In this document: piece after piece, positions 1,219-44,600 of the stretch
Layout: each line of letters opens with the position of its first letter
Numbering within the stretch: position 1 is the stretch's first letter
Assembly: GCA_965287045.1 (NCBI GenBank)
Contig: OZ336874.1
Span: forward strand, 71,858,001-71,922,000
DNA length: 64,000 nt
Origin: Carcharhinus amblyrhynchos
Lineage: Eukaryota
Direction of reading: 5' to 3'
Translations under genes and position numbers: made by a program
Notes under the pieces: model-generated
Databases searched by the model: none
What the model saw: the letters and a program-made list of their open reading frames with translations, nothing else
Told to the model about the DNA's origin: nothing

Positions 1219-3950
1219 TAAAGGTTTACCTAACAAAGCTGATTGATATAGATGGGAGGGAAAAGGGGGTGGGGTAGCTCTGCTGATTAAGGATAATATC
1301 AGGGCGGTAGTAAGGGAAGATATAGGCTCCAAAGAGCAGAACGTGGAATCGTTGTGGGTGGTGATAAGGAACAGCAAGGGGAGGAAGATTCTGGTGGGTA
1401 TGGTCTTTAGGCCCCCAAATAATGACTTGGAGGTGGGGCAGGCTATAAACAAGCAAATAAATGATGCGTGCAGGAATGGAGCGGCGATAATTATGGGGGA
1501 TTTCAATCTGCATATTGATTGGATGACCCAGGTCGGACGCGGTGGGCTTGAGGAAGAGTTCTTGGAATGCTGCCGGGATAGTTTCCTTGAACAGTGCGTG
1601 TTGGAGCCGACGAGGGAGCGAGCTATCTTAGATCTGGTGTTGTGTAGCGACGCAGGAAGAATTAGGGGTCTTGTTGTGAGGGATCCTCTTGGGACAAGCG
1701 ATCATTGTATGGTTGAGTTTTTGATGCAGATGGAGGATGAGAAAGTAGGGTCCCGAACCTGTGTCCTCTGTTTGAACAGAGGGGAGTACGATAGGATGAG
1801 AGAGGAATTGGCAAATGTAGATTGGGGGCGCAGATTGGTTGGTAGGACTGCTGAAGAACAGTGGAGGATCTTTAAGGAGATCTTTTTCGGTGCTCAGCAG
1901 AAATATATTCCAATGGTATAGAAGGAATGTAGGAGAAGGGATAACCACCCGTGGTTATCGAAGGAAATAAAAGGGAGTATTAAATTAAAAGCTGATGTGT
2001 TCAGAGTGGCTAAAAATAGTGGGCGAGTAGAAGATTAGGAGAGGTTTAAAAATCAACAAAGAATGACTAAGAAGTTGATAAAGAAAGGAGGAATAGACTA
2101 TGAAGCTAAACTAGCACTAAATATAAAAAAGGGCAGTAAGAGTTTTTACAAATAAAGAAGAAGAGGCTGGCTAGAGTGAATGTTGGGCCCTTAGAGGATG
2201 AGAGGGGGGATTTAGTGGTGGGAGATGAGGAAATGGCTGAGGCCTTAAATAAGTTTTTTACCTCGGTCTTCACGGAGGAGGATGCAAATAGTTTGCCGGA
2301 TATTAAAGATAGAAGGATAGTAGGAGTTGAGGGCCTGAATGCGATTACTGTCACTAGAGAGGTAGTGCTTGATAGACTAACGGGACTGATGGTGGACAAG
2401 TCCCCAGGACCAGATGGAATGCATCCCAGGGTTCTGAAGGAAATGGCAGAGGTGATAGTAGATGCCTTAGTGATTATTTACCAAGCTTCGCTGGATTCTG
2501 GGGAAGTGCCGGAAGATTGGAAAACGGCTAATGTTACGCCGCTGTTTAAATAAGGTAGCAGGCAAAAGGCAGGGAATTATAGGCCAGTTAGTTTAACATC
2601 TGTAGTTGGAAAAATGCTTGAATCCGTCATCAAAGAAGAAATAGCGAGGCACCTAGAAAGGAATGGTTTGATAGAGCAGACGCAGCATGGATTCGTTAAG
2701 GGGAAGTCGTGTTTGATGAATTTATTGGACTTCTATGAGGATGTGACTAGTGCGGTAGACAGAGGGGAACCGGTGGATGTGGTGTTTCTCGATTTTCGAA
2801 AGGCGTTTGATAAGGTGCCGCATAAAAGGTTGCTTCAGAAGGTTGGGGGCATGGAGTTGGGGGTAAGATGTTAGGCGTGGATAGAGGATTGGTTGTCTAA
2901 TAGGAGGCAGAGAGTTGGTATCAATGGGTGCTATTCTGATTGGTGGTTGGTGCCGCAGGGATCGGTGCTGGGACCTCAGCTATTTACCATTTATATAGAT
3001 GATCTGGAGGAGGGGGCTGAGTGTAGGGTGACGAAATTTGTTGATGACACAAAGATGAATGGAAAAGCAAATTGCACAGAGGGTGTGGAAAGTCTGCAGA
3101 GGGATCTGGATAGGCTGAGCGAGTGGGCGAGGACCTGGCAGATGGAGTACAATGTTATAAAGTGTGAGGTTATCCACTTTGGCAGAAATAATAGTAGGAG
3201 GGATTACTATTTAAAGGGCAAAAAGCTGCAGCATGCTACAGTGCAGAGGGACCTGGGGGTCCTTGTGCATGAGTCGCAAAAACCCAGTCTGCAGGTGCAG
3301 CAGGTGATTAAGAAGGCGAATGGAATGCTGGCCTTTATAGCGAGGGGGATAGAATATAAAAGCAGGGAGGTCTTGCTGCAACTGTACAGGGCACTGGTGA
3401 GGCCGCAGCTGAAGTACTGTGTGCAGTTTTGGTCGCCGCACTTGCGCAAGGATATTTTGGCCTTGGAGGGAGTACAGAGGAGGTTCACTAGGGATGAGGG
3501 GGTTAGACTATGAAGAGAGATTAAATAGACTGGGTCTGTACTCATTGGAGTTTAGAAGGATGAGGGGGGATCTTATAGAGACGTATAAGATAATGAAAGG
3601 GATGGATAGGGTAGAGGTAGAGAGATTCTTCCCGCTCAGAAAGGACAGCAGGACTAGAGGGCACAGCCTCAAGATAAGGGGGGGTGCAGTTTAGAATGGA
3701 GTTGAGGACGAACTTCTTCACTCAAAGGGTGGTGAATCTCTGGAATTCTCTGCCCGTTGAAGCGGTGGAGGCTACCTCGCTAAATATATTTAAGTCACAG
3801 GTAGATAGGTTTTTGACAGACAAGGGAATTATGGGGAGAAAGCGGGAAAGTGGAACTGAGCCACTTCAGATCAGCCATGATCTTATTGAATGGCGGGGTA
3901 GGCTTGAAGGGCTAGATGGCCTACTCCTGCTCCTATTTCTTATGTTCTTA
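1219..3950 (+). mobile_element. CR1-clade LINE (HER1-like), 5'-truncated inside the endonuclease domain; ORF2 broken by stops and frameshifts
   Basis: ORFs 1343-1921, 2176-2553, 2614-2874, 2893-3513 and 3684-3953 give APE motifs (IIMGDFN, ILDLVL, LGTSDH) and RT motifs (KSPGPDGMHPRVLKE, QHGFVKGKSC, FLDFRKAFDKVPH, PQGSVLGPQLF, KFVDDTK). The 3' end is a (TTCTTATG)-type tail. Candidate TSD TGAAAATT lies at 1211-1218 and 3951-3958. Confidence 0.96.
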
Positions 3951-5330: not shown

Positions 5331-5426
5331 AAGCCACTGATTCCAAGAGACATTATAAGTTTCCCTTTGTTGTTGCAACCTGTGCTACAAGCTATTCTTG
5401 TTTTATTTCACAAGGGAAGATTTTAT

Positions 5427-5764
5427 CATAGAATCATAGAAACCCTACTGTGCAGAAAGAGGCCATCTAGCCCATCAAGTCTGCATGACCACAATCCCAC
5501 CCAGGCCCTACCCCCATATCCCTACATATTTACCCACTAATCCCTCTAACCTACGCATCTCAGGACACTAAGGGGCAATTTTAGCATGGGCAATCAACTT
5601 AGCCCACGCATCTTTGGACTGTGGGAGGAAACTGGAGCATCCGGAGGAAAGAAACACAGACACAAGGAGAATGTGCAAACTCCACACAGACAGTGGCCCA
5701 AGCCAGGAATCGAGCCCAGGTCCTTGGAGCTGTGAAGCAGCAGTGCTAACCACTGCGCTACCGT
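5427..5764 (-). mobile_element. HE1-type V-SINE, near full length
   Basis: Minus strand has a tRNA-like head (CGGTAGCGCAGTGGTTAGCACTGCTGCTTCACAGC..GGGCTCGATTCC), the V-domain (GTGTGGAGTTTGCACATTCTCC..CTCCCACAGTCCAAAGATG) and a CR1-like tail ending (TTCTATGA)n. Confidence 0.92.
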
Positions 5765-9113: not shown

Positions 9114-9450
9114 GGGTGGCACGGTGGCACAGTAGCACAGTGTTTAGCACTGCTGCCTCACAGCACCAGGAACCTGGATTCAATTCTGGCCTTGGGTGAC
9201 TGCCTGTGTGGAGTTTGCATGTTTTCCCCATGTCCATGTGGGTTTCCTCGGGTGCTCTGGTTTCCTTCCACAGTCCAAAGATATGCTGGTTAGGTCGATT
9301 GACCAAGCAAAAGAAAATGCCCCTTAGTGCTGGGGGGACTAGCCGGGTAAATACGCGGGGTTACGGAGATATTGCCTGGATGGGACTGTTGTCGGTGCAG
9401 TCTTGATGGGCTGAACGGCCTCCTTCTGCACCATATAGATTATAAGATTT
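9114..9450 (+). mobile_element. HE1-type V-SINE
   Basis: GGTGGCACAGT..TTAGCACTGCTGCCTCACAGC head, B box GGATTCAATTC, V-domain, and tail GGTGCAGTCTTGATGGGCTGAACGGCCTCCTTCTGCAC. Confidence 0.9.
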
Positions 9451-11060: not shown

Positions 11061-12344
11061 CTTGAAGAATTAAATGACACAGTGAAACATTGCAAGCCAT
11101 ATTTTACTCTAAGACTGTACCTCTTTTTAAGTATGATACATTTTTTAAAACCTCTGATGTAAATTGTTTTTGCTAAATTGTATTGATACTAATAATGTAT
11201 CAAATGCTCCCGTTATGCTGTGTTCGAGCATTCAATCAGATCAGGAGTTCCATGTAATCTGACCTTCAAAATTCAGCACATCCAATCTTTCTTATGGATT
11301 CAAAAGGTACCAGTGCGAACTATACCAGCCTCACCTGTGAATTTTTGCCAGATTTGCACAAATACTGAGATGACATCACCAATCATATCTCCCTCCCCAA
11401 CCCCCCATCTTTTCCCCTTTATTACCTCTTCTGATATTGTGTTCTCCACGCAATTTGGGAGCTGTCCTGCTTGAATTTCACCTTTATTAAGATAAAGACT
11501 GACTAAACAGTCAGCGGATTGATCGCTTTATCATAACTGGGACACACCATTTCACTAATTCTTGTATTGTTGAATATATTTGAACAATGTCATTATATCA
11601 GACAAATTCCTACTTTTTGGTCCATTAGCCAAGCTGGCAATGGGGAAACTGCAATTACTGCAGAATTCTGAGCTTGGAATCAGCCAGGTTTCCCATATCT
11701 GACTGGCCCAGCAAACTGCTACTCACCATCTGTGATCGTACATTAAAGCTACTTTAATGCAGTCACTGTTTTAGTTCAGATTCCAGGAGGCAGTTGTCCT
11801 CGGACATCTCTTAGCATTATATTAGTAAATCTAGCTCCCTTGTCAACTAACCAGGCATACTCATAAGTTCAGCTTCTTCTATGCCAGTAATTCTGCCGCT
11901 GAGTTAATGGAGCTTGATTTAACAATGTAAACTTTTAGCTACCAGTCGTTCAGAATTCAGTGAAAATTCCACTACAATTGGACTCTGGAATGTAGCATCT
12001 GTAGACAGCTCCATGTGACTATCATCATTCCTTAAGAGATAAAAGAGAAAAAAATTGGAATATTGGAGGGAAATTACCTAAAATAATAACTCTGAATGTT
12101 ATAAGGCCACATCGATTAGAGTGAAATTAGATCATGTCACTGATGTAGCCAAAATATAAATATGCCTCGTCCAGGATCTTAGTCCACTGCTAGTTTAAAA
12201 CCAATATTTCTTCAACATCATTCCTATACAGGTCAACTAGAAAGCTGGCAAAAGCTGACCAAGAGCCTCAAGGTACTAACACAGCCTCCAAAAGGCTAAC
12301 AATTTAACAATAATACTGATAACAAATCGTTGATAGAAAGCTCT

Positions 12345-12510
12345 GAATCTATATAGACTTGTTCAAGACCTCTGGATGTCTCAAAGCACTTTACACTCAG
12401 TGTTGAAAGTTCTGTCATCACTATTGTAGCGTAGAAAAGACAGCAGCCAGTTTGTACACAGCAAACTGCCACAAACAATGTGACAATGAACAGATAATCT
12501 GTTTTGGGGA
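12345..12510 (-). mobile_element. SacSINE1/DeuSINE-like 3' fragment
   Basis: Reverse complement matches the 3' half of the copy at 52030-52480 (AAACAGATTATCTG..CATTG..TTTGTGG..TTGCTGTG..AAAGTGCTTTG). Confidence 0.7.
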
Positions 12511-12524
12511 TATTTTTCCCCTTT

Positions 12525-13680
12525 TACAGGGTATGTGTGTCACTGGCTAGATCAGCGTTTATTGTTCATCCATTATTCTGCATAAGAAGGCAGTGATAAG
12601 CTGTCTTCTTAACACTGCATTCTATGTGGTGCAGTTAGCCCATGGTACTAATAGGAAGTGAGTCCCAGATTCTTAACCCAATGATGGTGAAGGAAAGACA
12701 GTGAAGGAACTCCCAAGTCAGAATGGTATGTGGCTTGGAGGGGAACTTTCTAGTGGTGGTGCTCTTATGCATTGTGGAGGTGATAGGTTAGCCGTGTTAT
12801 TGCTAGACTATTAATCCAGAAACTCAGCTAATGTTCTGGGGACCTGGGTTCGAATCCTGCCCTGGCAGCTGGTAGAATTTGAATTCAATAAAAAATATTT
12901 GGAATTAAGAGTCTACTGATGACCATGAAACCATTGTTGATTTTTGGAAAAACCCATCTGGTTCACTAATGGCCTTTAGGGAAGGAAATCTGCCGTCCTC
13001 ACCTGTTCTGACCCACATGTGACTCCAGAGCCACAGCAATGCAGTTGACTCTCAACTGTTTTCTAAAATGGCCTAACAAGCTACCCTGTTTCAAAGGCAA
13101 CTAGGAATGGGCAATAAATGCTGGCCAACTAGTGGTGCTCATGTCACATGAATGAAAGAAAAATCTGCTGCCCTGTCCTTCTAGATGGAGGAGGTCATGG
13201 ATTTGGAAAGTGCTGTCAGAGCGACTGGTTTTCAGATGGTGTGCTGTGCCCATGAAAAGGGTGTAAGTGTGTTGCAGCCACTGGCACACCCACGTGCACA
13301 CCTTTGCATCAAGCCACCTGACAAACTCCAACCCTTCAACTGGTGGTGCAATCACACCAGTTATTTCTCCCCAGTGGGAGCCATTGGTCTAAGGAGCATA
13401 GGTGAGTTGCTGCAGTGCATTTTGTAAATGGTACCCATTGCTGCTACTGTGCATTAGTGGTGGAGGGAGTATGTTAGTGAAAGGAATGAAATCAAGCAGG
13501 TTTCTTTGTCTTGGATGATGTCAAGCTTCTTGAGTGTTGCTAGAGTTGCATTCATCCAGGCAAGTGGAGATTGTTACTATCACACTCCTGACTTGTGCCT
13601 TGTTGATTGTGGACAGGCTCTGGGAAGTTAGGAGGTGAGTTATGATCAGCAGAGTTCCCCACTTGCCCTTGTAGATACTT
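12525..13680 (-). mobile_element. CR1/Zenon-like LINE 3' fragment, interrupted by a SINE (12775-13163)
   Basis: Minus-strand translation resembles LTSQSLSTINKAQVRSV..SPLAWMNA..TLKKLDIIQDK..LHH..TVAA..TIYKMHCSNSP. Collinear with 26640-27250. Confidence 0.75.
12775..13163 (+). mobile_element. tRNA-derived SINE, full length, whose 3' tail matches the Zenon-like LINE
   Basis: Perfect B box GGTTCGAATCC at 12847-12857. Tail GGCAACTAGGAATGGGCAATAAATGCTGGCC..ATGAATGAAAGAAAAA. Other copies at 15025-15200, 30288-30570 and 40820-41185. Confidence 0.85.
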
Positions 13681-14045: not shown

Positions 14046-14687
14046 TGAGACCATGAGAGTTTAAAAGGGAAACCCAAATGCTGAAGATACAAGATCAGTG
14101 ATGTTTTGTTTTTAGGGAGTCCATAGGAATGCTCCAACAGCAAATTCCACTGGAGTGGTAATTGAGTCAGATTGTACTCCACTCACAATCATTTATCTTG
14201 AAATCCAGTTACTCTTATCTCATTCAGTCTTCCAACTCAGGGTGGGGTAGTGGGAGATGGGGGTAAGATAGGATCCTATGGAGTGGGGGGAAGGTGAGGT
14301 AATAGGGGAGGGATAGTGGGTGAAGTCCAATCAGGGTTGGGGAGAGTGGGATGCACCCTTGATGTTTGGGATGTTCAGCACAAGTTACTGAGAAGCTAGA
14401 AGTGGTTTAAATTCTTTTAACTTTCTCTGGCTAACTATTTTATATGACAGTCAGAAACATCCAATGTCTGGAAATTTCAATCACATTTTTGATGGTTCCT
14501 AGTGCAGGGCAATTGCCCTAAAAGAAGTTGGAATTTCCCAGGAAATTAACAGTGCAATCCTTACCTGGCACTGTCTGAAGTGAAGTGGAAGTGGAGGGTG
14601 GTAGGGGGGAATGGTAGTTTCCCGGAGCACCTTTGAGGGCCACCCCAGACACACTGCCCTGGAGCTCAGGGGTTATTGCCCACATCT

Positions 14688-14987
14688 AGAATCACAGAAT
14701 CCCTACAGTGTAGGAGGAGGCCATTGGGTCCATCAAGTCTGCACCGACCATAATCACACCCAGGCCCTATTCCCGTAACTCCACATATTTACCTTACTTA
14801 TCTCCCTGACACTAGGGTTAATTTAACATGGCCAATCAATCTAATCCACACATTCAGAAACCGGAGCACCCGGAGGAAACCCACACAGACACAGGGAGAT
14901 TCTGCAAAGTGACCTGGGGCCAGAACTGAACGCGGGTCCCTGGTGCTGTGAGGCAGCAGTACTAACCACCGTGCCATCATGCTGCCC
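14688..14987 (-). mobile_element. HE1-type V-SINE with small internal deletions
   Basis: Collinear with 5427-5764 (AGAATCACAGAATCCCTACAGTG ... GCAGCAGTACTAACCACCGTGCCA). Confidence 0.9.
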
Positions 14988-15024
14988 TAATATTTCAAAT
15001 CCTATGTTAAGGCTTTGAACTGTA

Positions 15025-15200
15025 AGTGAACCAGATGGATTTTTATGAAATGGTTTCATGGTCATCATTATGCTTTAATTCCAAATTTTTAAAAAATTCA
15101 AATTTCACTATCTGCTGCGGTTTTGAAGCCAGTGCCCAGAGCATTATCCTGGATCTCTGGATTGCTAATGCAGTGTTAATACTACTTCTCCACTGCCTCC
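15025..15200 (-). mobile_element. 5' half of the tRNA-derived SINE (12775 family)
   Basis: AGTGAACCAGATGGATTTT..ATGGTTTCATGGTCATCA..TTAATTCCAAA..CCCAGAGCATTA..TCTCTGGATT is the reverse complement of 12800-12968. Confidence 0.75.
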
Positions 15201-15367: not shown

Positions 15368-15500
15368 GTCTCACCTGATGAAGGGGCAGCGCTCTGAAAG
15401 CTAGTGGCTTGTGCTACTACATAAACGTGTGGGACTTTAACCTCACGTTGTGAGACTTCTTACGGTGTTTACCCCAGTCCAACACCGGCATCTCTACACC
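15368..15500 (+). mobile_element. Short Penelope-like repeat, family A (pLTR end plus 3' extension)
   Basis: ATAAAC-TGT-GGACTTTAACCT..GTTGTGAGACTTCTTAC-GTGTTTACCCCAGTCCAACACCGGCATCTC, shared with 29545-29655, 33210-33295 and 43230-43275. The family is physically linked to GIY-YIG-type coding sequence at 33611-33770. Confidence 0.85.
15372..15406 (+). ncRNA. Minimal type I hammerhead ribozyme, catalytic core intact (family A)
   Basis: CAC-CUGAUGA-A-GGGGC-AGC-GCUCU-GAAA-GC-UA-GUG. Stem I is CAC/GUG, stem II is 5 bp, the core CUGANGA and GAAA are intact, palindromic AGCU replaces helix III, and predicted cleavage is after CUA (15403). Confidence 0.78.
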
Positions 15501-16009
15501 TTGTCTCATGGCCATTCATTTTTATTTCCTTGTCCTTTCTGCGCCACTCCAGCCTGAGTCCTGGACCTAATTCCAGGCACTCTTTTGCTCCCTAATTCAT
15601 GTGGTGGGTGAGAACTTCTACCTACAGTTCACAATGGACAGCATCATTAGCAGCAACTTGGGGCCAGAGGTTCTGATCTATGTTGGTCTTTGGCACAAAG
15701 CACCGATGCATATCGAATGCATGGGTTATGAAGCTGCCCACATGTATGCATAATTAACCGATGTCTTCCTTGCAAATACATATTATCTTTGCATATATGT
15801 GTAATGAATATTTCATTCCTACCAAATAAAGCAAAAAAAGGCTGTGGATTTGCATTGAAAATAATAGAAATTCCTGCTTATTCAAGAATGCCAGAATTGC
15901 ATTGCTTGGTATCTGTACATGCATATTTGAAATTTTAAATTGCCCCAAATTAAATATCGCATAGCAATGAAAATGAAGTTTTAATAACTAAAGAGGTTCA
16001 GGGAAAGTT

Positions 16010-16360: not shown

Positions 16361-17299
16361 TGGTGATTGTAGTAAGAAGTCTCACAACGCCAGGTTGACA
16401 CCGATACGGCAAACATTTTGTGTTACTGCAGCATGTGTGCTTTTCACTGTTTACCAATGCAGTGCAATAATAAATCAAATCAGTTTAAATGTAGAGGTGT
16501 ATTTCTGTACTCGGTCAGTTACCCTTGCTGTGTGCTACAATCCGGGAAAGCGGATGCCTTACAGCAGTTTGAAGTGACCGCGGCCAGGTACCAATACAAT
16601 GAGAACAGCGGAAGGCGAAACTATTCAACATTTACCAAGAGTTCTCTCCGCTGCAAAAAGTACAAGTTGACATAAGTATGCAATTTCGGGTGTGCTGAAT
16701 TTGCAGTTTGCCGATTTGCGCTCTCTTTCTGTCGATGCCATTGTCTCCCCTGTCTTTCCACCTTTCATTATTTGCCCAACCTCCCGTTTCTCGCCTCATT
16801 TTTTGTCTGAAGCAGTCCGCAAGTCGTTCACTCATTTATCGCCCTGTTTAACCCATCCCCCCTCTCCATTCTTTAAAACCTAATTGAAACGCCTGGTTAG
16901 GTTTGCAGTTTGAGGAAATGTGCTGCATCCAAAGTGTAAATTGAAATAGAAACAAGACAGGAATAAAGTTAGAGGGATGTTTGCTAATTACAGTCGCTGA
17001 CTGACCCTCTGTTTGTTTTCTCTCTGTTTTCATTTCGGATTTCCAGTCATTGAAGTTCCGCCCCAAGTTTACATTAGATCTCTTCTGGTGGATATCAGAG
17101 GAAGGTCCGGATTTGAAGTCAACCAAAAAAAAAGCCCAGCTAGTAAAAATATACAAACCAAATTAAGGGAGGGTTGGAGAAAAAATTGATGGTTTTTGTT
17201 TGTTCTTCGACGTGTATGAAAAAACAAATAAAACTTTATTTTGAATGAATATATGTAATTATTTGAGGAGGGATTGTTGCCCGTACCCTGAAATTAAGA

Positions 17300-23909: not shown

Positions 23910-24108
23910 AAAGTCCAAAGATGTGCGGGTTAGGCTGATTGGCCATGCTAAAAATTGCCCCTAAGAGTCCTGAGATGCATAGGTTAGAGAGATTAATGGG
24001 TAAATATGTAGGGATATGGGGGTAAGGCCTGGGTGGGATTGTGGTCGGTGTAGACTCAATGGGCCGAATGGCTTCCTTTTGCACTGTAGGTTTTCTATGA
24101 TTCTATGA
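23910..24108 (+). mobile_element. HE1-type V-SINE, 5'-truncated
   Basis: AGTCCAAAGATGTGCGGGTTAGGCTGATTGGCCATGCTAAA..GGGCCGAATGGC..CTATGATTCTATGA; closely matches the reverse complement of 5427-5620. Confidence 0.9.
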
Positions 24109-26245: not shown

Positions 26246-28227
26246 TATTGATAAGGTCCGCATTGGTTGTCAAAATATTATTCACGTCTTGTGTAAAATT
26301 TCACTTCCTACTGATGCAGCCATCTGAATGTGTATACGGGCAAAAATGCCCTTTTGTGTGCAAGCTGCGGTGAAATTATAATGTGTTCTTTGTAGATGCT
26401 TTTGATTTTGCTACAGTTATTGAGCAGGGGGAAACTCCTTATGTGTAGCTGATAAAATGCTTGCATACTTGCTTTATGTTTATGTACCAGAAACACTTTG
26501 CACAAAACAGTTGCTGCAGTATTCTGTCATGAGGATGTTAACTCCTTGCTGGTATACTGTAATTGACCTCTGATACCTTGCTGAAGTGTCCATTATTTGT
26601 GTGTAAACACTGATTTTTTTTTTAAAAATTGTTTCTTTATATATTCATTGGATATGGTTATCACTGCCAAGGTCAGTATTATTCCCCATTCCTAATTTTA
26701 CTTGAGTGGCTGATGGTGAGCTGCCTTCTTGATTCACTGCAATCCATGTGGGGAAGGTACTCTTTTGGTGCTCTTTATAGAGCGATTCCAGGATTTTGAC
26801 CCAGTGACAATGGAGGAACAGCTTGGTGGCTTATTTCTAAGTCATGATGGTGCATGACATGGAAGGGAGATTGCAGATGCTCATGTTCTTCGTGTGCCTG
26901 CTGTCCCTATCTTAGATGGTAGCAGTTCCAAGTTTGAGAAGTGCTGTTGAAGAAGCTTTAGCAAGTTGCTGCATTGCATTTGTAGATGGCTCACATTGCA
27001 GCCACAGTGTTAAGTGGTGTTTGTTCAAATAATGGATGGAGTGCCAATCAAATGGGCTGCATTGACCTGGATGGTTTTGATCTTGAGTGTTTTTGGAGAT
27101 GCAATCATCAAAATAAATGGAGAATATTCCTTTTCAACCCCTGAATTGTGCCTTGTAGATGGTAGAAACACTTTGGAGAATCAGGAAGTGAGTTACTTGC
27201 CACAGAATTCCCAGCCTCTGACCTGCTCTTGTAGCCACAAAAGTTTTATGACTGTAAGTTTCTGGTCATGTTGATCCCCAGGATATTGATGGTGGGGAAT
27301 TCAGTGATGGAAATACCATTGAATGTCAAGTGGAACTAATTAGACTCTATTTTTGGATTTGGTCAATGACTGGCACATGTGCCACACAAATGTTACTTGC
27401 TATTTATCAGCCTAAGCCTGAACGTTGTTGAGATCCTGTTGTAAGAAAGGAGTACTTAATTATCTGAGGAATTTGCTACATTCAGTGCGCTCAGCTGTTC
27501 CTTGATGTCACATGGGGTAAAGATTCAAATTGGCTTCCGCAATTGTGGGGACTCTTGGAGTAAGCCAAGATGGATCATTCACTTAACTCATTTGGCTGCA
27601 GGTGTTTGCAGCTGCTTCAGCTTTGCATTTTGTACTTGTGTGCTGAGTTCCATCATCACTAACATGGTGATATTCATGAAGTGCCTTCTTCTTTTAGTTG
27701 TTTAATAGCCCATCACCATTCATTATTGAATGTGGCAGGACTGCAGAGTTTTGATCTGATCCATTGATAAAGAAATTGATTATCTCTATTTATAGCATAC
27801 TGATTCTACTGTTTAACATACACATTGTCCTGTGCTGTAGCTTAACCAGGTTGGCACCTCATTTTTCGATATGTATAGTGCTGCACTTGGCATGTTATCC
27901 TAACTCAACGAATCAGAGTTGATCCATTAGTTTAATGGTACTGGTAGATTGAGGGATATGCTAGGCCAAAAGGTTGAAGAATGTGGTGATGTACAGTCTT
28001 GCCACTGCCAGTGGCATATTATCCTTTACGATTAGCGAGGTTTCAGTTGCTGGGTCTATTCTGAATCTGTCCCAATTAACTTAATAGTGGTATCACACAA
28101 TATGATGGATGATATCATTAGTGTATAGACAAAGCTTTGTCTCCAATAGAACTGTGCAGTGGCTACTTCTACCCATCCATCTGTGACAGGTAAACTGGTG
28201 AGGACAGGGTAAGGTAGGGTTTTATAT

Positions 28228-29390
28228 AAACATAAGAAATAAGTGCAGAAGTAGGCCACTCAGCTACTCAAACCTGCTCTACCATTCAAAAAGGCCTGGC
28301 TGATTTAGCTCCGTTCCACCTTCTCTTATTCCCCATTGTACCCAAAAATCTGTCAACAATTGTCTTTAATGTATTCAATCTCTGATTATCCACAGCTCTC
28401 TATGATAGAGAATTCTAAAGGTTTGCAGCACTTTGAGTGAAGACGTTTTTCCTCATCCCAGTGCTAAATGGCCAACTTCTTATTCTGTGACTGTGATCTC
28501 TTGTCCTGGATTCCCTAGATAGGGGAAACATTTCTTAGCATCTACCCTGGTCCCTTAAGAATTTTATATGTTTAGATGACCTCTCATTTAAGGGAATTTG
28601 GTCTGGTCTACACAAGCTTCTCCTCATAGGAAAATTCCCTCATTCCAGGAACCTTCTAATGAATCTTCATTGCACTCTTTTAAGGCCATGTATAATTTCC
28701 TTAAGTAAGGAAATCAAAACTGCACACAGCACTCCAGATATGGACTCACCAGTGTCCTGTATAATTCCTTACTCTTATACTCTAATACTTTTGTAACAAA
28801 ATATAATATATAAGTTGTCTACTTAATTGCTTGCTTCATCTGAAAGTTAACTTTGTCTGATTTATGAACAAGGATACCCAGATCTCTCTTAATGCAGATA
28901 TTTCCCTGTCTCTCACCATTCAAAAAATATTCTGTCTTTGTTTTTCCTACCAAAATGGATAACTTTATACTTCTCTATGCAGTGCCTTGTTCTTACCTAC
29001 TCACCCAACCTATCTACATCTCTCTGCAGCCACCTTATGTCCTCCTCACTGCTTACTTCCCATCCTCACATTGCATTATCAGCAAACTAGGACACATTAC
29101 AACCAACCTACATTGACAGTATAGATTGTCAATAGCTGAGGCCCAAGTACTGATCCTTGCAGTAAACCACTAGTTATAACTTGTCAATCTGCAAATGTCT
29201 TGCTTATTTCAACACTCTGCATTCTGTCCATTATCAATTCTCTGATATATTGATGCTAATATATTATCTCCAATCCCATAGTATTGTAAAATAGTCTTTT
29301 GTGTAGTACTTTATATAGTGTTTTTTGCAAATTCAAATGTACCAGGTAGACTCCCCTTTATTCATCCCAGTGGATCTTTAAAAAATGCAA
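28228..29390 (-). mobile_element. CR1 3' portion nested in the Zenon-like LINE
   Basis: Begins AAACATAAGAAATAAGTGCAGAAGTAGGCCACTCAGC (reverse complement of the CR1 tail). Contains the reverse complement of GFTARISTWASA-like (degenerate PQGSVLGPQLLTIY) sequence at ~29120-29165. Confidence 0.85.
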
Positions 29391-29431
29391 ATCTTTTAGT
29401 TTGGGTTTTTTCTCTGACCGTGTGTCACAAA

Positions 29432-29668
29432 GTAAGAAGTCTCACAACACCAGGTTGAAGTCCAATAAGTTTATTGGATAGTAAACCCACAAGCTTTCGG
29501 AACACTGTTCCTTTGTCAGGTGAGTGGAAAGTTCTGATCAGCGCGTTCCGAAAGCTTGTGGGTTCACTATCAAATAAACTTGTTGGATTTTAACCTGGTG
29601 TTGTGAGACTTCTTACTGTGTTTACCCCCGTCCAACACCGGCATCGCCACATCATAACTACCATTGAC
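29432..29668. mobile_element. Penelope-like family A insertion: inverted pLTR plus 5'-truncated direct copy with 3' extension
   Basis: Arms 29431-29503 and 29545-29617 are inverted copies. Flanked by a 15-bp TSD ACCGTGTGTCACAAA (29417-31) / ACCGCATGTCACAAA (29669-83). Hammerhead on the minus strand at 29488-29522. Confidence 0.88.
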
Positions 29669-31269
29669 ACCGCATGTCACAAACCCAGTCTGACAGATAT
29701 GTCCTTCAGAACTTGGCCAACCTAGTCAGAAATGGTTATTCTGAATCAATCTTGGTGAAACCCCCTCCTTACCACCCTTGCCCCCCGCCCCCACTGACCT
29801 CCACCTATTTCTTGCTGTCCTCAGTGCTTCTTTCAAGTGGTCTTCAATATGGAGAGGCACTAACTCATCAGCTGAGCGAGGTGGTAATCAGCAGATGTTT
29901 TTCTTGTCAGCGTATAACCTGATGCCAGTTGACTTCATAGTGACCAAAGTTAATGTTGAAGACACCCAGGGTCATTTCTGTACTGTATATCAGTGTGCTG
30001 TCACTGCTGGTGGGGCTGCACAGCCAATATAACAGGACACGCCAGGCATGGTGATGGAGACATTGGCTGTGAAATATGATTTTCGTGTACGACTATGTCA
30101 GGTTGTCACTTGGGACAGCTCTCCCAATTTTGGTACAAATCCCTAGATATTAGTGATGAGGACTTTGTCGGGTTGATTGAATGGGTGTACCTTTGCAATG
30201 TCTGAATTCAATGCCTTAACCAATGTCAGGTGATTTGTCTGGTTTTACTGTCCTCTGTTGTCTGTACTTTGTTGTAGACATTTGGCAGAACTGAGTAGCT
30301 TGCCTTTTTGAGAGGGTAGTTAAGAGTTAACCCCATTGCTATACACGTGAAATCACACATCAGGGCAGCTTGAGTAAGAATGTTAGATTTGCTTTCCGAA
30401 ATGACACTCACGAGCCAGACAGTTTTTTTTGTGGCAATCCAACAGTTACATGTCATCTTTACTGATATTAGCAATTTATTCTCAATATTATTCAATAAAT
30501 TGAATTTGAATTTTCTCGATAACAGGATGGGATTTGAACTGGATTACTAGTCCAGTAACTTGATGACCACTTTTCTGTTCCTATTGAATGGTGCTTGTCA
30601 GCAAGCTGATTAACTACAGTAGCAGGACAGTCAAGCTTGGTCCATCCATTTGTGGTTCAAGTGAACTTTTAATAGATGTTGCTGGATAGTTAACTAGAGT
30701 GGAAATGTTAGCTGACTGCTTCATCTATGGTCATCCAGACGCAAACTATTGATCACTTGACTGACTGAAAGTTGAAACACTTTAAAGTGAAGCTGGGGGC
30801 TCACATGACCTATATAGCTTGGTTACTCGCTGGTTCAATTGGTCACTGTGGGTTAAAGTGACCATTTTACACTGACCAGAATAATATGGGATATTCTGGT
30901 CTGTGGCCTGATGTCACATGGCTACATAGGCCCTCTCTATGGCTCTATTCTGTGGTATCTTTTGCATCCTAATTGGATACTACAGTTATGTAAACCAATA
31001 TTGAGCAAAGTGTAAACTTGTACTTTGATTGCTTGAGAAATTATTTATCAGACAGTGTCTTTGCATGAAAGCATGATGTGATTATGTTTGAGGAAAAGTT
31101 AAAGTCTGTTTATAGGAAGCCACATGTGCATGGGACAGGAAGTAACTGCAGGCTAATAAAATATTGCCTTGGTGTGTGTCTTTTTATGAAGTATTTGCCT
31201 TGTGTTAAGACACTTTCAAGGGGCTAAATGTTTTTGTTTGGGACCATGATGTCATGCATTTTGGGGTCT

Positions 31270-33124: not shown

Positions 33125-33295
33125 AGTGCCTTTATATGCTCTGTGTGTGACCAGAACTCTCCACTCACCTGACAAAGGGGCAAACCCCAAAAGCTAGTGG
33201 GTCTCCTATCAAATAAACCTGTTGGACTTTAACCTGGTGTTGTGAGACTTCTTACTGTGTTTACCCCAGTCCAACACCGGCGTCTCCACATCATG
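33125..33295 (+). mobile_element. Penelope-like family A pLTR with degenerate hammerhead (33166-33199)
   Basis: CAC-CTGACAA-A-GGGG-CAAA-CCCC-AAAA-GC-TA-GTG, then AAATAAACCTGTTGGACTTTAACCTGGTGTTGTGAGACTTCTTACT and the 3' extension. Confidence 0.85.
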
Positions 33296-33305
33296 TCTCC
33301 AAAGA

Positions 33306-33772
33306 CAGTAAGAAGTCTCACAACACCAGGTTAAAGTCCAACAAGTTTATTTGGAGCAAGTGCCACTAGTTTCAGAATTGGCTGTGCCTTCGTCCGGTGA
33401 GTGGGGAGTTCTGTTCACAAACAGGGCATATAAAGACACAAACTCAATTTACATGAATAATGGTTGGAATGCGAGTCTTTACAGCTAATCAAGTCTTAAA
33501 GGTACAGACAATGTGAGTGAAGAGAGGGTTAAGCACAGGTTAAAGAGATGTGTATTGTTTCCAGACAGGACAGTTAGTGAGATTTTGCAAGTCCAGGCAA
33601 GTTGTGGGGGTTACAGATAGTGTGACATGAACCCAAGATCCCGGTTGAGGCCGTCCTCATGTGTGCGGAACTTGGCTATCAGTCTCTGCTCAGCAACTGT
33701 GCGCTGTCGTGTGTCGTGAAGGCTGCGTTAGAGAACGCTTACCCGAAGATCAGAGGCTGAATGCCCGTGACT
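33306..33772 (-). mobile_element. Penelope-like element 3' end including C-terminus of the GIY-YIG endonuclease ORF
   Basis: Minus strand 33769-33611 reads HGHSASDLRVSVL*RSLHDTRQRTVAEQRLIAKFRTHEDGLNRDLGFMSHYL* (H..E..I..F.T...GLN signature), followed by a 3' UTR, a degenerate hammerhead (33364-33399) and the family A terminus. Confidence 0.88.
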
Positions 33773-35135: not shown

Positions 35136-35430
35136 AAAGTTTATTTATTATTTATTAGTCACAAGTAGGCTTACATTAACACTACTGTGAAGTTACTGTG
35201 AAAATCCCCTAGTTGCCATCTGGCACCTGTTTGGGTATACTGACGGAGAATTTAGTATGGCCAACACATCTAACCAGCATGTCTTTTGGACTCTGGGAGG
35301 AAACCGGAGCAAACCCATGCAGACACAGGGAAAACTTGCAAACTCCACACAGACAGTGACCCAAGCTGGGAATCAAACCCGGACCCCTGGTGCTGTAAGG
35401 CCGCAGTGCCAACCACTGTGCCACCCCAGT
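35136..35430 (-). mobile_element. V-SINE with HE1-type head and core but a different 3' tail
   Basis: 35255-35425 matches the HE1 head and V-domain. 35136-35250 is unrelated to the CR1-like tail of the other copies. Confidence 0.85.
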
Positions 35431-40819: not shown

Positions 40820-41185
40820 GTGAGATGTTGGTGTCAGTGGCAAGGCAGATTTATTATTCTTCCCTAATTGCCCTTGAACGGAGTGGCTTACAAGGCCATT
40901 TCAAAGGGAAGTTAAGTTGCTGTGGGTCTGGAGTCACAGGTAGGCCGGATTGGGTAAGGATGGCAGATTTCCTCCCTAAAAGAGATTAGTAAACAATTAG
41001 TTTTTACAAAAATCAGTGATAGTTTCATGGTTACCAGTACTGAGACAAGCTTCCAATTCCAGTTTTATTAATTGAATTGAATTTAAATTCTGAAAGCTGC
41101 CATGGTAGAATTTAAACTTGTGTCTCCAGAACATTAACCTGTGCCTCTGGATTATTAGTTCAGTGGGATTACTACTATGCCATGT
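40820..41185 (-). mobile_element. tRNA-derived SINE (12775 family), full length
   Basis: Collinear with the reverse complement of 12790-13150, including the tail CCCTAATTGCCCTTGAAC. Confidence 0.85.
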
Positions 41186-42142
41186 CTACAATATAAGAGG
41201 CTCCTTCTGGTAGACCCAGTCACTGGTATAAATGAGACCAGGGACTGCACATTATGGTGGAGGGGGAACCAGGGGCTCTATATTATATGGGGAAGGGCAA
41301 GCTGCATATTATGGGGAGGTGGATGGCTCCCCCTCCCCAGCTCCTCAGAAGCAAAGTGGGTGAGAAGCTGACTCACTCCAAACTGCCCCTCAACCGTAAT
41401 GTGCAACAGGCAGGATACATTGCCTGACAATGGGACTCTGCCCTCACTGGGTGGTGGGGGAGGGGGAGGTATTCCTGCCCACCAGAGCTGCTGGCCAATA
41501 CAGCAGGCATGACAGCGCCAAGAGTTCTGTAGGAGGTGCCACCAGAATTGCAAGCAGTCCCAAAAAGAATACCCAATGGATCCCAGAGTAAGGTCAGGAG
41601 GCTTCAGCAAGTGTGGGGATGGTGAGGAGGGTGGTGGGTTTTTGCTGAACAGGTGAGTAGGAAGAAAGAGGAGTCACCAGCTTATTCTCCAATGGGTGAC
41701 AAATGTGGCATCTGCAAACCACTGTGTTATGGGAGTGAGCAAGGGGGTGGATGGGAAGGGCAGTCAGATGGGCACTCGGCCTATTTCATGTGCACCCCCC
41801 GCCCCCACCTGCAAAAAAATGTTTGGGGACTTCAGCAGCCGGTCCTCTTGGAAATTGGGTAACATTCAGCTGCCAGCTGACAACTTTTGTGGGAAGCTGG
41901 AACTGCGTATTTGCACTTTTTTTTGTAATAATGGAAGAGTGCAATGTACCAGAAGATGCTGGTATCTGCTTGAAATAAAAAAGCTGAACTCTGGTGTATG
42001 CAGTTTGTTTTCTCAAAATTAGGTGCAACAAGAAAGCACTTTATGCCAAATCATTCTTCTGGCAGCTTTGACACTTGAATAAGAACTCAAATCTGTAAAA
42101 ACAGCATAATCGTACATGGTGGCATGTAAGCATGAAGGCTTA

Positions 42143-42495
42143 GGGCATCACGGTGGCTCAGTGGTTAGCACTGCTGCCTCACAGCACCAGGAAACCCCGT
42201 TCATTTTCAGCCTTAGGTTTTTGTCTGTGTGGAATTTGTACATTCACTCCATGTCTGCGTGGGTTTCTTTCTGTGTTCCAGTTTCCTCCCACAGTCCAGA
42301 AATGTGCAAGTTAGGTGGATGACTATCTAAATTGCCCCTTGCTGTCCAAAGTAGGTCAGGTGGATTAGCCATGGTAAATCGTGAGGTTACAGGAATACGG
42401 TGGGGGGGGTGTAGATTCTGTGTAAGATGCTTTGCGGAGCGTTGATGCAGACTCGATGGGCCTCCTGCACTGTAGGGATTCTGTGATTCTGTGAC
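42143..42495 (+). mobile_element. HE1-type V-SINE
   Basis: GGGCATCACGGTGGCTCAGTGGTTAGCACTGCTGCCTCACAGC..CTCCCACAGTCCA..GCAGACTCGATGGGCC..GATTCTGTGATTCTG. Confidence 0.9.
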
Positions 42496-43094
42496 TGAAG
42501 CTGAATTTTATTGAAATAGTTGTACAGATTAATGCCTCTTTCAGCTCAAATTGGAAACTTGCTCTTAAAGTTTTGCTTACTTAGGAATTAAATGAAAAAT
42601 TCTAATGTATGAATAAATTGCATTTGTTCTTTAAAGAGCCACTCTTCAGGAATGCTTTTCAGCAATTTTTACATCGAAACATGGAATGGAATACGACTGA
42701 AATGTATCCAATGTTGTCATCCCCCAAATCAAATATTACCCAATTGTTGAAGGCAGTGACATTACTTTTTATTTTCCCTCACCTAAAGAGCAGAATCATA
42801 GAAGATATTGCACCAAGGAAAGAGGCTATTTGTCGCTTAAATGGCTGTGATAGTGTTAATTGTTCAACTACAGAACTGAAAGAAAATATAAGGACTTTTG
42901 TTTATACCGTGCTTTACATGACAACAGGATTACATGTTAGATGGCACAGAAACAGGCTCCTTCATCAGGTGATATCACTCCAGGCTATTCATTGAAGCTG
43001 TAATGATTCTTGCCCTTCAACAACTTGAGTCTTATACATACCTACCTTCTAGCTTATTGCTTATGTGGACCACACCTCTTAATTTGGTAATAAT

Positions 43095-43277
43095 GTAAAG
43101 ACTCACATTCCAACCATTCATCACATTCCAATCTGTAATTATCTTGCAATTGTGTCTTTGCCTATATATGCTGTGTTTGTGAACTGACCTCCATTCACTT
43201 AATGAAGGAGCTCTGAAAACTCATGATTCCAAATAAACCTGTGGGACTTTAACCTGGTGTTGTGAGACTTCTTATTT
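43095..43277 (+). mobile_element. Penelope-like family A pLTR with degenerate hammerhead (43196-43225)
   Basis: AAAGACTCACATTCCAACCATT..TGTTTGTGAAC..CAC-TTAATGA-A-GGAGCTCT-GAAA-AC-TC-ATG..AAATAAACCTGTGGGACTTTAACCTGGTGTTGTGAGACTTCTTA. Confidence 0.82.
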
Positions 43278-44600
43278 TTGGTAATATCAGAAGCCTCAAC
43301 ATCACTGTTCATTATATCTCTGTAAAAACCATGTATGTATAAACAGGAAAGGAGAGAAGTCCAGCCCATATTTCCAGGAGACCATTGAAGTATTCGTAAA
43401 CTGAATGGATCAGAAACAGCTTCCACTGCAGGAGGACTTTGGGTTGGCAAGTAACTTGAGTCAGGAAATTTTTACATGTCTGACCTTCCTCAGTAACACG
43501 TGCCCAGAATCGCTCCATGGACTTAAGGGACACGAGGTGATATTGAGCCAGGCTAACCTAGAAACAGATGCTAAGAGGACACAGGAATGACTGAGTGCTG
43601 ATGTGGGCTGGTCAGAAGGTCTACCTTTGTTCTCTGAGACTTAGTTGCAGTTGTTCTGGAAGATTTTTCAGCCCTCTAGTCCTCACCACCTCGACCCCCA
43701 ACCAACTCCTCCCTTTGCCCCAAGCTTGACTGTCAATCAAAATATTCCAGCATCTTTTAAAAAAATGACAGCTGCAGCCAGCTCTTTTTTGCAGTTTAAA
43801 GAGCAGGGGATTTTAAAAACAACTTCAGATCATTAAAGACCATCAAACAGACCTTACCACTCTCCAGGAGCTTTTATGTATACTACATCAACTTTTGCTC
43901 CCAATCTGTGGTGAAGGCCCTTGGGGTTAGTAGTTACTTCAGATGGCCTTGCTAAGTTCAGGTTTCCCTCCTCTTGAAAGTCACTCCCCTCCCTCTTCCT
44001 CCTCCCAGCAAAAGCAGAACCTGTCGGAAATGGGGACAGGATGTCTGCATCTCGGGCCTCCCGTTAGTTTTAAAGGCCCTTGCAGTCATCCTAAAAGAAA
44101 CCCAGTCATGTGCTTTTTTTAACAGATCTCATGTTTGTATGTAAATAGTGCTTTGTGTACATTTAAACCACAAGGTAAAGCTGGGATTAAGATTTGTGGA
44201 AATGCAAACAAACTAAAGAGCTGTTTACACACATCTCTTTGAGTTTCAGCACTGCAGAATTCTGTTGGATTCCTGAACTTAGCCTGGTTGTCTGTGGAAA
44301 GAGATTCCATTATTAACTGAAGGAAGTGGTATAACAAGTTGTAAAAATGTTGATGAGGTGGGATATTTCATCCGACTTGCCGAGGGGGATTTTGAGAGAA
44401 ATCATTGAAGTGGGTATAAAAAGATCCCTTCCCAATACCACTATTGACTTTACACTTCACAAATCGAAATATGTATTGCTTGAAATGACGATTTGTGTGC
44501 TTGATTTAGAGAATGGACAATGGTTTGTTAAAAAAAAGAGGAGAATGGCAGAAGTAGGAAGAATGTGCAAAGACAGATCCAGCAGGCATCTTGATTCTGT

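Follow-up and report, generated by a model that had tools for sequence, protein, structure and literature searches.

A headed Zenon element and its family

The window considered here is a stretch of 64,000 nucleotides (nt) from the shark Carcharhinus amblyrhynchos (assembly GCA_965287045.1, contig OZ336874.1, positions 71,858,001 to 71,922,000, forward strand). On its minus strand, at positions 26636-30571, lies a copy of a long interspersed nuclear element (LINE) whose 5′ end resembles that of a tRNA-derived short interspersed nuclear element (SINE). A preliminary description, made from the letters of the window, had regarded it as an autonomous CR1/Zenon-like element with a tRNA-derived head and without a first open reading frame (ORF1), and had taken the free SINEs of the window to be its head joined to its tail. 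The results presented below incline us to the view that the locus represents a defunct copy of a Zenon element of 3.3 kb with a single ORF and a SINE-like first 317 nt, whose active form RNA polymerase III (Pol III) would have transcribed from its head.

The B box, the 14-nt junction motif (30301-30288) and the start of the APE endonuclease (the codon for K of KVLITNI, at 30166) were all located on the minus strand where the preliminary description had placed them, with the APE start about 120 nt past the junction (Table 1). The copy shows 66-72% identity to the family majority in three blocks, and element nt ~1748-2435 are absent from it. Its first ~15 nt are beyond recognition, and its head lacks some 30 nt on the stretch from the anticodon arm to the B box. 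The ORF is further interrupted by a palindromic repeat, flanked by a duplication of about 15 nt, and by a fragment of a canonical CR1 LINE, for which a search gave 1598 candidates with best non-self matches of 67-78%. The window copy is thus an old, dead element with a deleted reverse transcriptase (RT) core and two nested insertions.

The head-to-APE junction was used as a query against the genome; the counts given here rest on scored hits out of larger sets of first-look candidates. With the window's own junction, 39 other loci were scored among 486 candidates, and 20 of the 24 that contained APE sequence extended into the part shared with the SINE (5 head-only loci excluded). With a junction from a better copy, all 39 non-self scored hits (7114 candidates) covered no fewer than 320 of the 341 nt, at 86-91%. 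As a junction query itself selects for the junction, the search was redone with APE sequence only. Thirty of the 40 loci scored in this search were fetched, one being the query itself; 26 of the other 29 copies continued into the head, 13 of the 29 reaching nt 20 or less, and three ended in the spacer. The junction that had been proposed to mark a real element therefore recurs in both kinds of search. The same breakpoint and a spacer of about 105 nt were found in 111 distinct alignments across the junction (a junction-selected sample), and the start lies no more than 5 nt from one common base in 53 of 90 LINE heads and in 42 of 74 SINE heads.

The 5′ flanks of the APE-selected copies were also compared. 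No common leader, alternative 5′ untranslated region (UTR) or ORF1 was found upstream of the 30 loci. Nine pairs of their 400-nt upstream flanks shared sequence, and a follow-up of 16 truncated copies traced such sharing to separate insertions of CR1 or other repeats. Sequence shared 5′ of four truncated copies was considered as an alternative 5′ UTR and rejected, as it consists of separate CR1 3′ ends about 300 nt off. Hence neither of the observations that the preliminary description had named as telling against it, a junction unique to this locus or a different 5′ UTR or ORF1 in full-length copies, was made. In contigs from four sequencing runs (four organisms, not on record as RNA) all 30 bins of the element were covered at 80% likeness; the head-to-tail joint was present in the contigs of all four runs, and one contig bridged head and APE. 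A body motif sought in metagenome and viral contigs gave no match in either. There is, in our judgement, hardly any doubt that the combination of a tRNA-like head with an APE-RT frame is real and family-wide.

To describe the intact form of this element, 40 copies were fetched with 7 kb of sequence. Both ends could be placed in 19 of them, 11 of which measure 2.97-3.26 kb from head to tail, while the remaining eight carry large indels. In full-length copies, of about 3.3 kb, a head resembling tRNA-Ser, with an A and a B box, is followed by one APE-RT frame and a short A tail; short A runs terminate most of the LINE and SINE copies shown. Copies that retain head and tail with large internal deletions (L062, 1.24 kb; L076, 0.86 kb; L077, 1.63 kb; L063, 2.11 kb) are possibly intermediates between LINE and SINE or products of later deletion.

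A majority sequence derived from 20 of the 40 copies is 3290 nt long and contains one stop-free stretch of 936 codons, which runs from the APE motif to a stop within the tail, in agreement with the single endonuclease-RT ORF looked for in a consensus. The TGA just ahead of this stretch is a decayed CpG (CG 33, CA 24 and TG 20 copies), so that from nt 294 onwards 979 codons can be read without a stop. In this longer frame the ATGs of codons 34 and 106 are likewise decayed CpGs; a genuine ATG comes first at codon 139, which lies within the endonuclease, and no AUG precedes the endonuclease in the APE-RT frame. A genuine strong AUG is present in another frame at element nt 349, where it opens 36 codons (nt 349-458) that overlap the APE start, and it is visible in 6 of 7 published elasmobranch Zenon consensuses; the APE frame across nt 349-458 is Arg-rich. 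The corresponding part of the window copy (~30243-30140) is decayed. No canonical slippery site for a -1 frameshift from the AUG-led upstream frame was seen by eye. The APE motif begins about 425 nt from the 5′ end and the upstream frames of the majority sequence do not exceed 42 codons, which, together with the lack of any other leader at the APE-selected loci, upholds the absence of ORF1.

The coding nature of the frame is further indicated by Pfam searches with pieces of single copies, in which 3 of 4 pieces were matched (PF14529, E 1e-10; PF00078, E 2e-12). Majority sequences of the old and young types of the element, distinguished below, differ by 71 synonymous and 47 non-synonymous codon changes, with 616 codons identical and 35 CpG-type changes set aside; by codon position, the differences are 78 third, 27 first and 18 second. 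This excess of synonymous and third-position changes indicates that the Zenon lineage was under selection for its protein. The description of the element as autonomous thus holds for the past of the family, but not for the window copy, whose RT core is gone. No intact copy was found among the fetched loci, in which the longest stop-free Zenon pieces are of 240-270 codons.

Four matches were obtained with a 245-aa Zenon piece in a protein search: two are models of shark genes and the other two, at 32%, are distant RTs, and they do not help to assign the element to a clade. In the two models, annotated as aldo-keto reductase 1B1-like and GPR139, a stretch shares 75% and 60% identity, respectively, with the Zenon ORF, which may reflect either exonisation or an annotation error. 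In the same genome, stop-free stretches of 417-504 codons occur in young copies of canonical CR1 (L093:3614-5125, L064:2569-3861 and L201:1-1251), which provided the control for the T-run counts given below. Another open frame, of 479 codons with an N-terminal hydrophobic segment (L065:5299-6735), lies about 4 kb from a Zenon copy and resembles the first exon of a polypeptide GalNAc-transferase.

The partner SINE and other repeats in the window

The majority sequence of 30 SINE copies is 387 nt long and corresponds to element nt 1-317 joined directly to the last 70 nt, with about 97% identity, so that the proposed composition of the SINE from the two ends of the LINE is confirmed. It differs from the element at about 12 positions, mostly at CpG, and its tail differs from the last 70 nt of Zenon at two, both at CpG. 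In a tree based upon 119 full heads an old and a young group were observed, each containing both SINEs and LINEs, although old LINEs were few; a pattern search for old heads yielded 8 loci, mostly young copies. The features of old-type heads are common to old SINEs and old LINEs. Similarly, at one site of the tail a C is present in 20 of 25 young LINEs and a T in 5 of 7 old LINEs, and the majorities of the matching SINEs agree. As age-matched variants of head and tail occur in both, SINE and LINE have stayed in step at both ends.

The SINE breakpoint is identical in the old and young types, with 1 nt of microhomology. A single breakpoint in both ages is not obviously expected from repeated independent deletion, and the shared variants together with the fixed breakpoint fit either re-derivation of the SINE or exchange between the two elements. 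A 4-nt microhomology at the junction, seen in the majority of 8 old heads, was not upheld in 27 individual copies, and splicing was rejected as the origin of the SINE junction, the skipped part being without GT-AG ends.

Both free SINEs of the window match the head region of the LINE with a local score of 103 (maximum of 41-42 in 100 shuffles). Their scores against the tail of the window copy, which is old, are 44-48 and only weakly above chance (shuffles 37-40). The tail sequence at 12530-12585, which the preliminary description had used in this comparison, is indeed a Zenon tail, but it belongs to a second, 5′-truncated copy (13671-12514) that is interrupted by one of the SINEs. Directly past the tail of this copy, the minus strand at 12340-12500 resembles the 3′ part of SacSINE1. 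Other copies of the palindromic repeat of ~235 nt are present at 15370-15507, 16371-16398, 33127-33483 and 43094-43278. A second short repeat family has many copies in the window (5426-5764, 9129-9449, 14687-14990, 23912-24108, 35249-35425 and 42140-42368); it gives no alignment with the Zenon head or tail and is unrelated to them, and we presume that it may be HE1.

Table 1. Zenon-related and nested features of the window (positions in the window; nt, element coordinates)
Feature	Position	Strand	Remarks
SINE-shared 3′ tail of LINE copy	26636-26705	-	last codons, stop, 3′ UTR, A-rich end
3′ part of Zenon ORF, nt ~2436-3219	26706-27470	-	72% identity
Zenon ORF resumed, nt ~966-1747	27472-28223	-	RT core (nt ~1748-2435) deleted after this block
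Nested 3′ fragment of canonical CR1 LINE	28224-29400	-	orientation as host copy; boundaries by eye
Nested palindromic repeat, ~235 nt	29432-29667	.	self-inverted match 29427-29621; boundaries by eye
APE endonuclease region, decayed, nt ~429-947	29668-30166	-	Pfam PF14529 found on sister copy
Spacer from SINE-shared part to APE motif	30167-30288	-	in family: open in APE-RT frame, without in-frame AUG
Body common to LINE copy and free SINE	30289-30529	-	last base = nt 317
tRNA-like head of LINE copy	30530-30571	-	A-box remnant ~30571-30567; anticodon-arm-like stem-loop 30554-30540; B box 30539-30530
Second Zenon copy, 5′-truncated, nt ~2700-3290	12514-13671	-	split by oppositely oriented SINE 12776-13156
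Free SINE, young head type, nt 3-317 joined to 3220-3285	12776-13156	+	88% and 86% vs family majority
Partial head, nt 3-194	15025-15200	-	75%
Free SINE, old head type	40820-41183	-	

Relationship to published elements

Comparisons with Zenon consensuses are based upon their first 400 nt, compared by eye. Zenon elements of elasmobranchs have been reported from five species as ORF1-less elements with a poly-A tail, not yet in repeat repositories (PMC13343379). The seven elasmobranch consensuses in the supplement of that study (CarCar, HypSab, RhiTyp and ScyCan Zenon-1 and SquAca Zenon-1/2/3) start with the same head and spacer as the element described here, and they resemble it further in being mostly of 3.2-3.3 kb, with a single APE-RT ORF, no ORF1 and an A tail. 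The young type is closest to RhiTyp Zenon, whereas the old type, to which the window copy belongs, resembles SquAca Zenon. Since its first 400 nt are near-identical to consensuses placed in Zenon by PMC13343379, the element, judged by its sequence, is a member of this published family, and the CR1/Zenon-like assignment of the preliminary description agrees with it. Two hagfish and one coelacanth Zenon in the same supplement are without the head in their first 400 nt, where they carry runs of four or more T (T4+). The main text of PMC13343379 contains the words 'tRNA' and 'promoter' not at all and 'SINE' once, and the head, the partner SINE, the scarcity of T runs and the missing AUG were not found in it.

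A parallel to the partner SINE is found in Lepidoptera, where Zenon is likewise accompanied by a non-autonomous element, Persaeus, of 260-390 nt built from its two ends (PMC6740152). However, Persaeus is described as having no similarity to tRNA, 5S or 7SL RNA and no Pol III promoter, and its breakpoints and centre are variable, in contrast to the fixed breakpoint and tRNA-like 5′ part of the shark SINE (PMC6740152). Because the hagfish and coelacanth Zenons are without the head and Persaeus is without a Pol III promoter, the head must have been acquired once, by capture from a tRNA or a SINE. In Bov-tA, AfroSINE and SINE2_Gav a tRNA head has been added to pieces of the 5′ and 3′ UTRs of a LINE which itself is without the head, and the clades listed with such bipartite SINEs are only RTE, Ingi, Vingi and R2; RTE-1_DAn includes a tRNA-like piece (PMC5786205). 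Other tRNA-derived SINEs of sharks include SacSINE1 (a Deu-SINE), whose tail is of L2 type, and HE1 (a V-SINE) (PMC5499810, PMC4824008); the Meta SINEs found in bivalves carry Ser heads and are able to use CR1-Zenon (PMC11481361). A preprint on the whale shark names CR1-Zenon only as a repeat class, and PMC1925062 has no passage on a start codon or promoter.

R2 and L1Tc are single-ORF non-LTR elements whose RNA is uncapped and for which translation resembling that from an internal ribosome entry site has been proposed, R2 RNA being made by Pol I (PMC6765202). R2 is thus a precedent for an uncapped coding retrotransposon RNA that is not made by Pol II. R2 and L1Tc depend on co-transcription and a ribozyme of the hepatitis delta virus type (PMC6765202); for Zenon, no ribozyme match was seen in Rfam for six loci covering the head and APE. 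No description of a tRNA-headed or Pol III-transcribed LINE was found in the literature searched, Repbase, Dfam and subscription journals lying outside that search. It appears, therefore, that the Zenon family has already been published but the tRNA/Pol III reading of its 5′ end has not.

Transcription of the headed element

The similarity of the head to tRNA is clearest in the SINEs. Over their first 85 nt, the SINE majorities of young and old type score 49.5 and 50, respectively, against the tRNA-Ser(AGA) of the same genome, where the maxima of 1000 shuffles are 45 and 41.5, and the match is carried by the A box, the anticodon arm and the B box. Both boxes have been kept in either type, old or young, as well as in the seven elasmobranch consensuses already published, although in one of these the B box is interrupted by a gap of 1 nt. 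From this we infer that the head probably served as a Pol III promoter. Such transcription would also require a sense strand free of terminators, an absence that the preliminary description had put up for testing and that is upheld by the young majority, whose 3290 nt contain no T4+ run in the sense strand and 14 in the antisense strand. The number of sense runs expected is 4.8 by base shuffle (P 0.007) and 4.4 with third-position-weighted codons (P 0.009). Runs of three or more T number 5, compared with 13.3 in dinucleotide shuffles, none of 300 of which had as few. Decayed pieces of the Zenon ORF carry 0.56-0.60 T4+ runs per kb, or 0.28-0.30 of expectation (101 pieces), and the oldest pieces 1.84 per kb, or 0.73 of expectation (28 pieces). 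For canonical CR1, the corresponding values are 3.85 per kb (1.53 of expectation) in 19 young pieces from the same loci and 4.45 per kb (1.14) in a further set of 32 pieces.

A number of observations weigh against this reading of the 5′ end. The majority head of the LINE, in which CpG sites have decayed, scores 39 against tRNA-Ser, below the shuffle maximum of 40.5; ARAGORN with default settings found a tRNA in none of 7 copies, its relaxed calls on majority heads occur on both strands, and Rfam recorded no tRNA in any of 6 loci. Under the strictest null models the lack of T4+ runs by itself does not reach significance, with 2.1 expected when the element's own synonymous codons are shuffled (P 0.081) and 2.0 by dinucleotide shuffle (P 0.097), and a single T4 run is present in the 2593 nt of the old-type majority. 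The prediction of a terminator-free sense strand thus holds for the young type but not entirely for the old, and its significance depends on the null model (P 0.007-0.10). The ORF also generally favours codons ending in C (Tyr 14:3, Ile 35:14, Phe 16:2), and the scarcity of T runs, although specific within this genome, is partly explained by this bias. Target-site duplications were sought in 14 LINE and 24 SINE copies with cross-locus controls, excluding 5 LINEs with doubtful ends and 6 5′-truncated SINEs, and none above control linked head and tail to one insertion; two LINEs exceed the control maximum but sit in local duplications, and no SINE does. The per-copy divergences of head and ORF are only weakly correlated (rho 0.21, P 0.085, n 66). 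Additionally, Zenons are without ORF1 whether headed or not (PMC13343379), so that its absence needs no Pol III, and the processivity of Pol III is held to restrict such RNAs to about 100-1300 nt (PMC10886601).

The last point favours in particular an alternative that is less probable than Pol III transcription but deserves serious weight, namely that the LINE did move as a unit together with its head but that Pol II made its RNA, either through read-through or from a promoter lying within the head or the body; the head would then be a 5′ UTR acquired by capture, and the scarcity of T an ordinary strand and codon bias. LINE RNA is attributed to Pol II (PMC10886601), a length of 3.3 kb is considerable for Pol III, the absence of T4 runs reaches no better than P 0.08-0.10 under the strict shuffles, and the strong AUG at nt 349, with its short frame over the APE start, could suit scanning followed by a frameshift. 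On the other hand, this alternative does not account readily for the retention of the A and B boxes in both types and the published consensuses, for the coincidence of LINE 5′ ends with the start of the SINE, or for the richness in T4+ runs of canonical CR1, a LINE from this genome that is transcribed by Pol II.

It is improbable, in our view, that the headed copies are recurrent chimeras, formed by template switching between SINE and LINE at insertion while the master Zenon has a different 5′ end and the headed form is not an autonomous unit. Template switching is an accepted route to composite SINEs (PMC5499810, PMC4824008), and both the failure to find target-site duplications and the intermixing of SINE and LINE heads in the head tree would be compatible with it. 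However, chimeras arising repeatedly are hard to reconcile with the one breakpoint and uniform spacer of the junction-selected alignments, with the lack of any second leader among the APE-selected loci, and with the occurrence of the same structure in published consensuses of five species (PMC13343379). The chance arrival of a tail-less SINE beside a truncated LINE at a single locus might be suggested by the age of the window copy, its two nested insertions and the frequency of juxtapositions in this region, but it was refuted by the junction-query and APE-only searches, and the presence of the junction at dozens of loci, in many contigs and in published consensuses leaves it virtually no probability.

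Transcription of the coding element by Pol III seems to us, on present sequence evidence, the most economical reading, and somewhat more likely than not to be right. Under this model Pol III would start about 10 nt upstream of the A box and could read through 3.3 kb because T4+ terminators had been purged. The RNA would be uncapped and translated from a non-AUG start, as has been proposed for R2. The Zenon protein would then copy RNAs with the 70-nt tail by target-primed reverse transcription, and as the SINE possesses this tail, the same protein is proposed to have mobilised it as well. A template switch onto an RNA derived from a tRNA probably gave the element its head within the elasmobranch lineage, and SINE and LINE may since have been kept in step by re-derivation or by further switches. 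Alu RNA made by Pol III needs no ORF1p, whereas Alu RNA made by Pol II does (PMC2666806), which fits a Pol III-made Zenon without ORF1. The more complete proposal, that of an autonomous coding retrotransposon of 3.3 kb present across sharks and rays, transcribed by Pol III from a tRNA-Ser-derived promoter and translated without cap or AUG, with the SINE representing the same element minus its coding region, appears to us evenly balanced between being right and wrong.

It is a standard rule that LINEs are transcribed by Pol II and SINEs by Pol III (PMC10886601), and a coding LINE with a SINE head would, if the above reading is true, break this rule. It would mean that Pol III can produce a translated RNA of 3.3 kb in the vertebrate germ line, and it would provide a direct route between LINEs and SINEs, in which deletion of the ORF gives a SINE and its addition gives an autonomous SINE. 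Counts of SINEs in shark genomes will in any case take in the 5′ ends of such LINEs. Lastly, two questions are made testable by these elements, viz. the origin of SINE bodies and the reason why some LINEs manage without ORF1.

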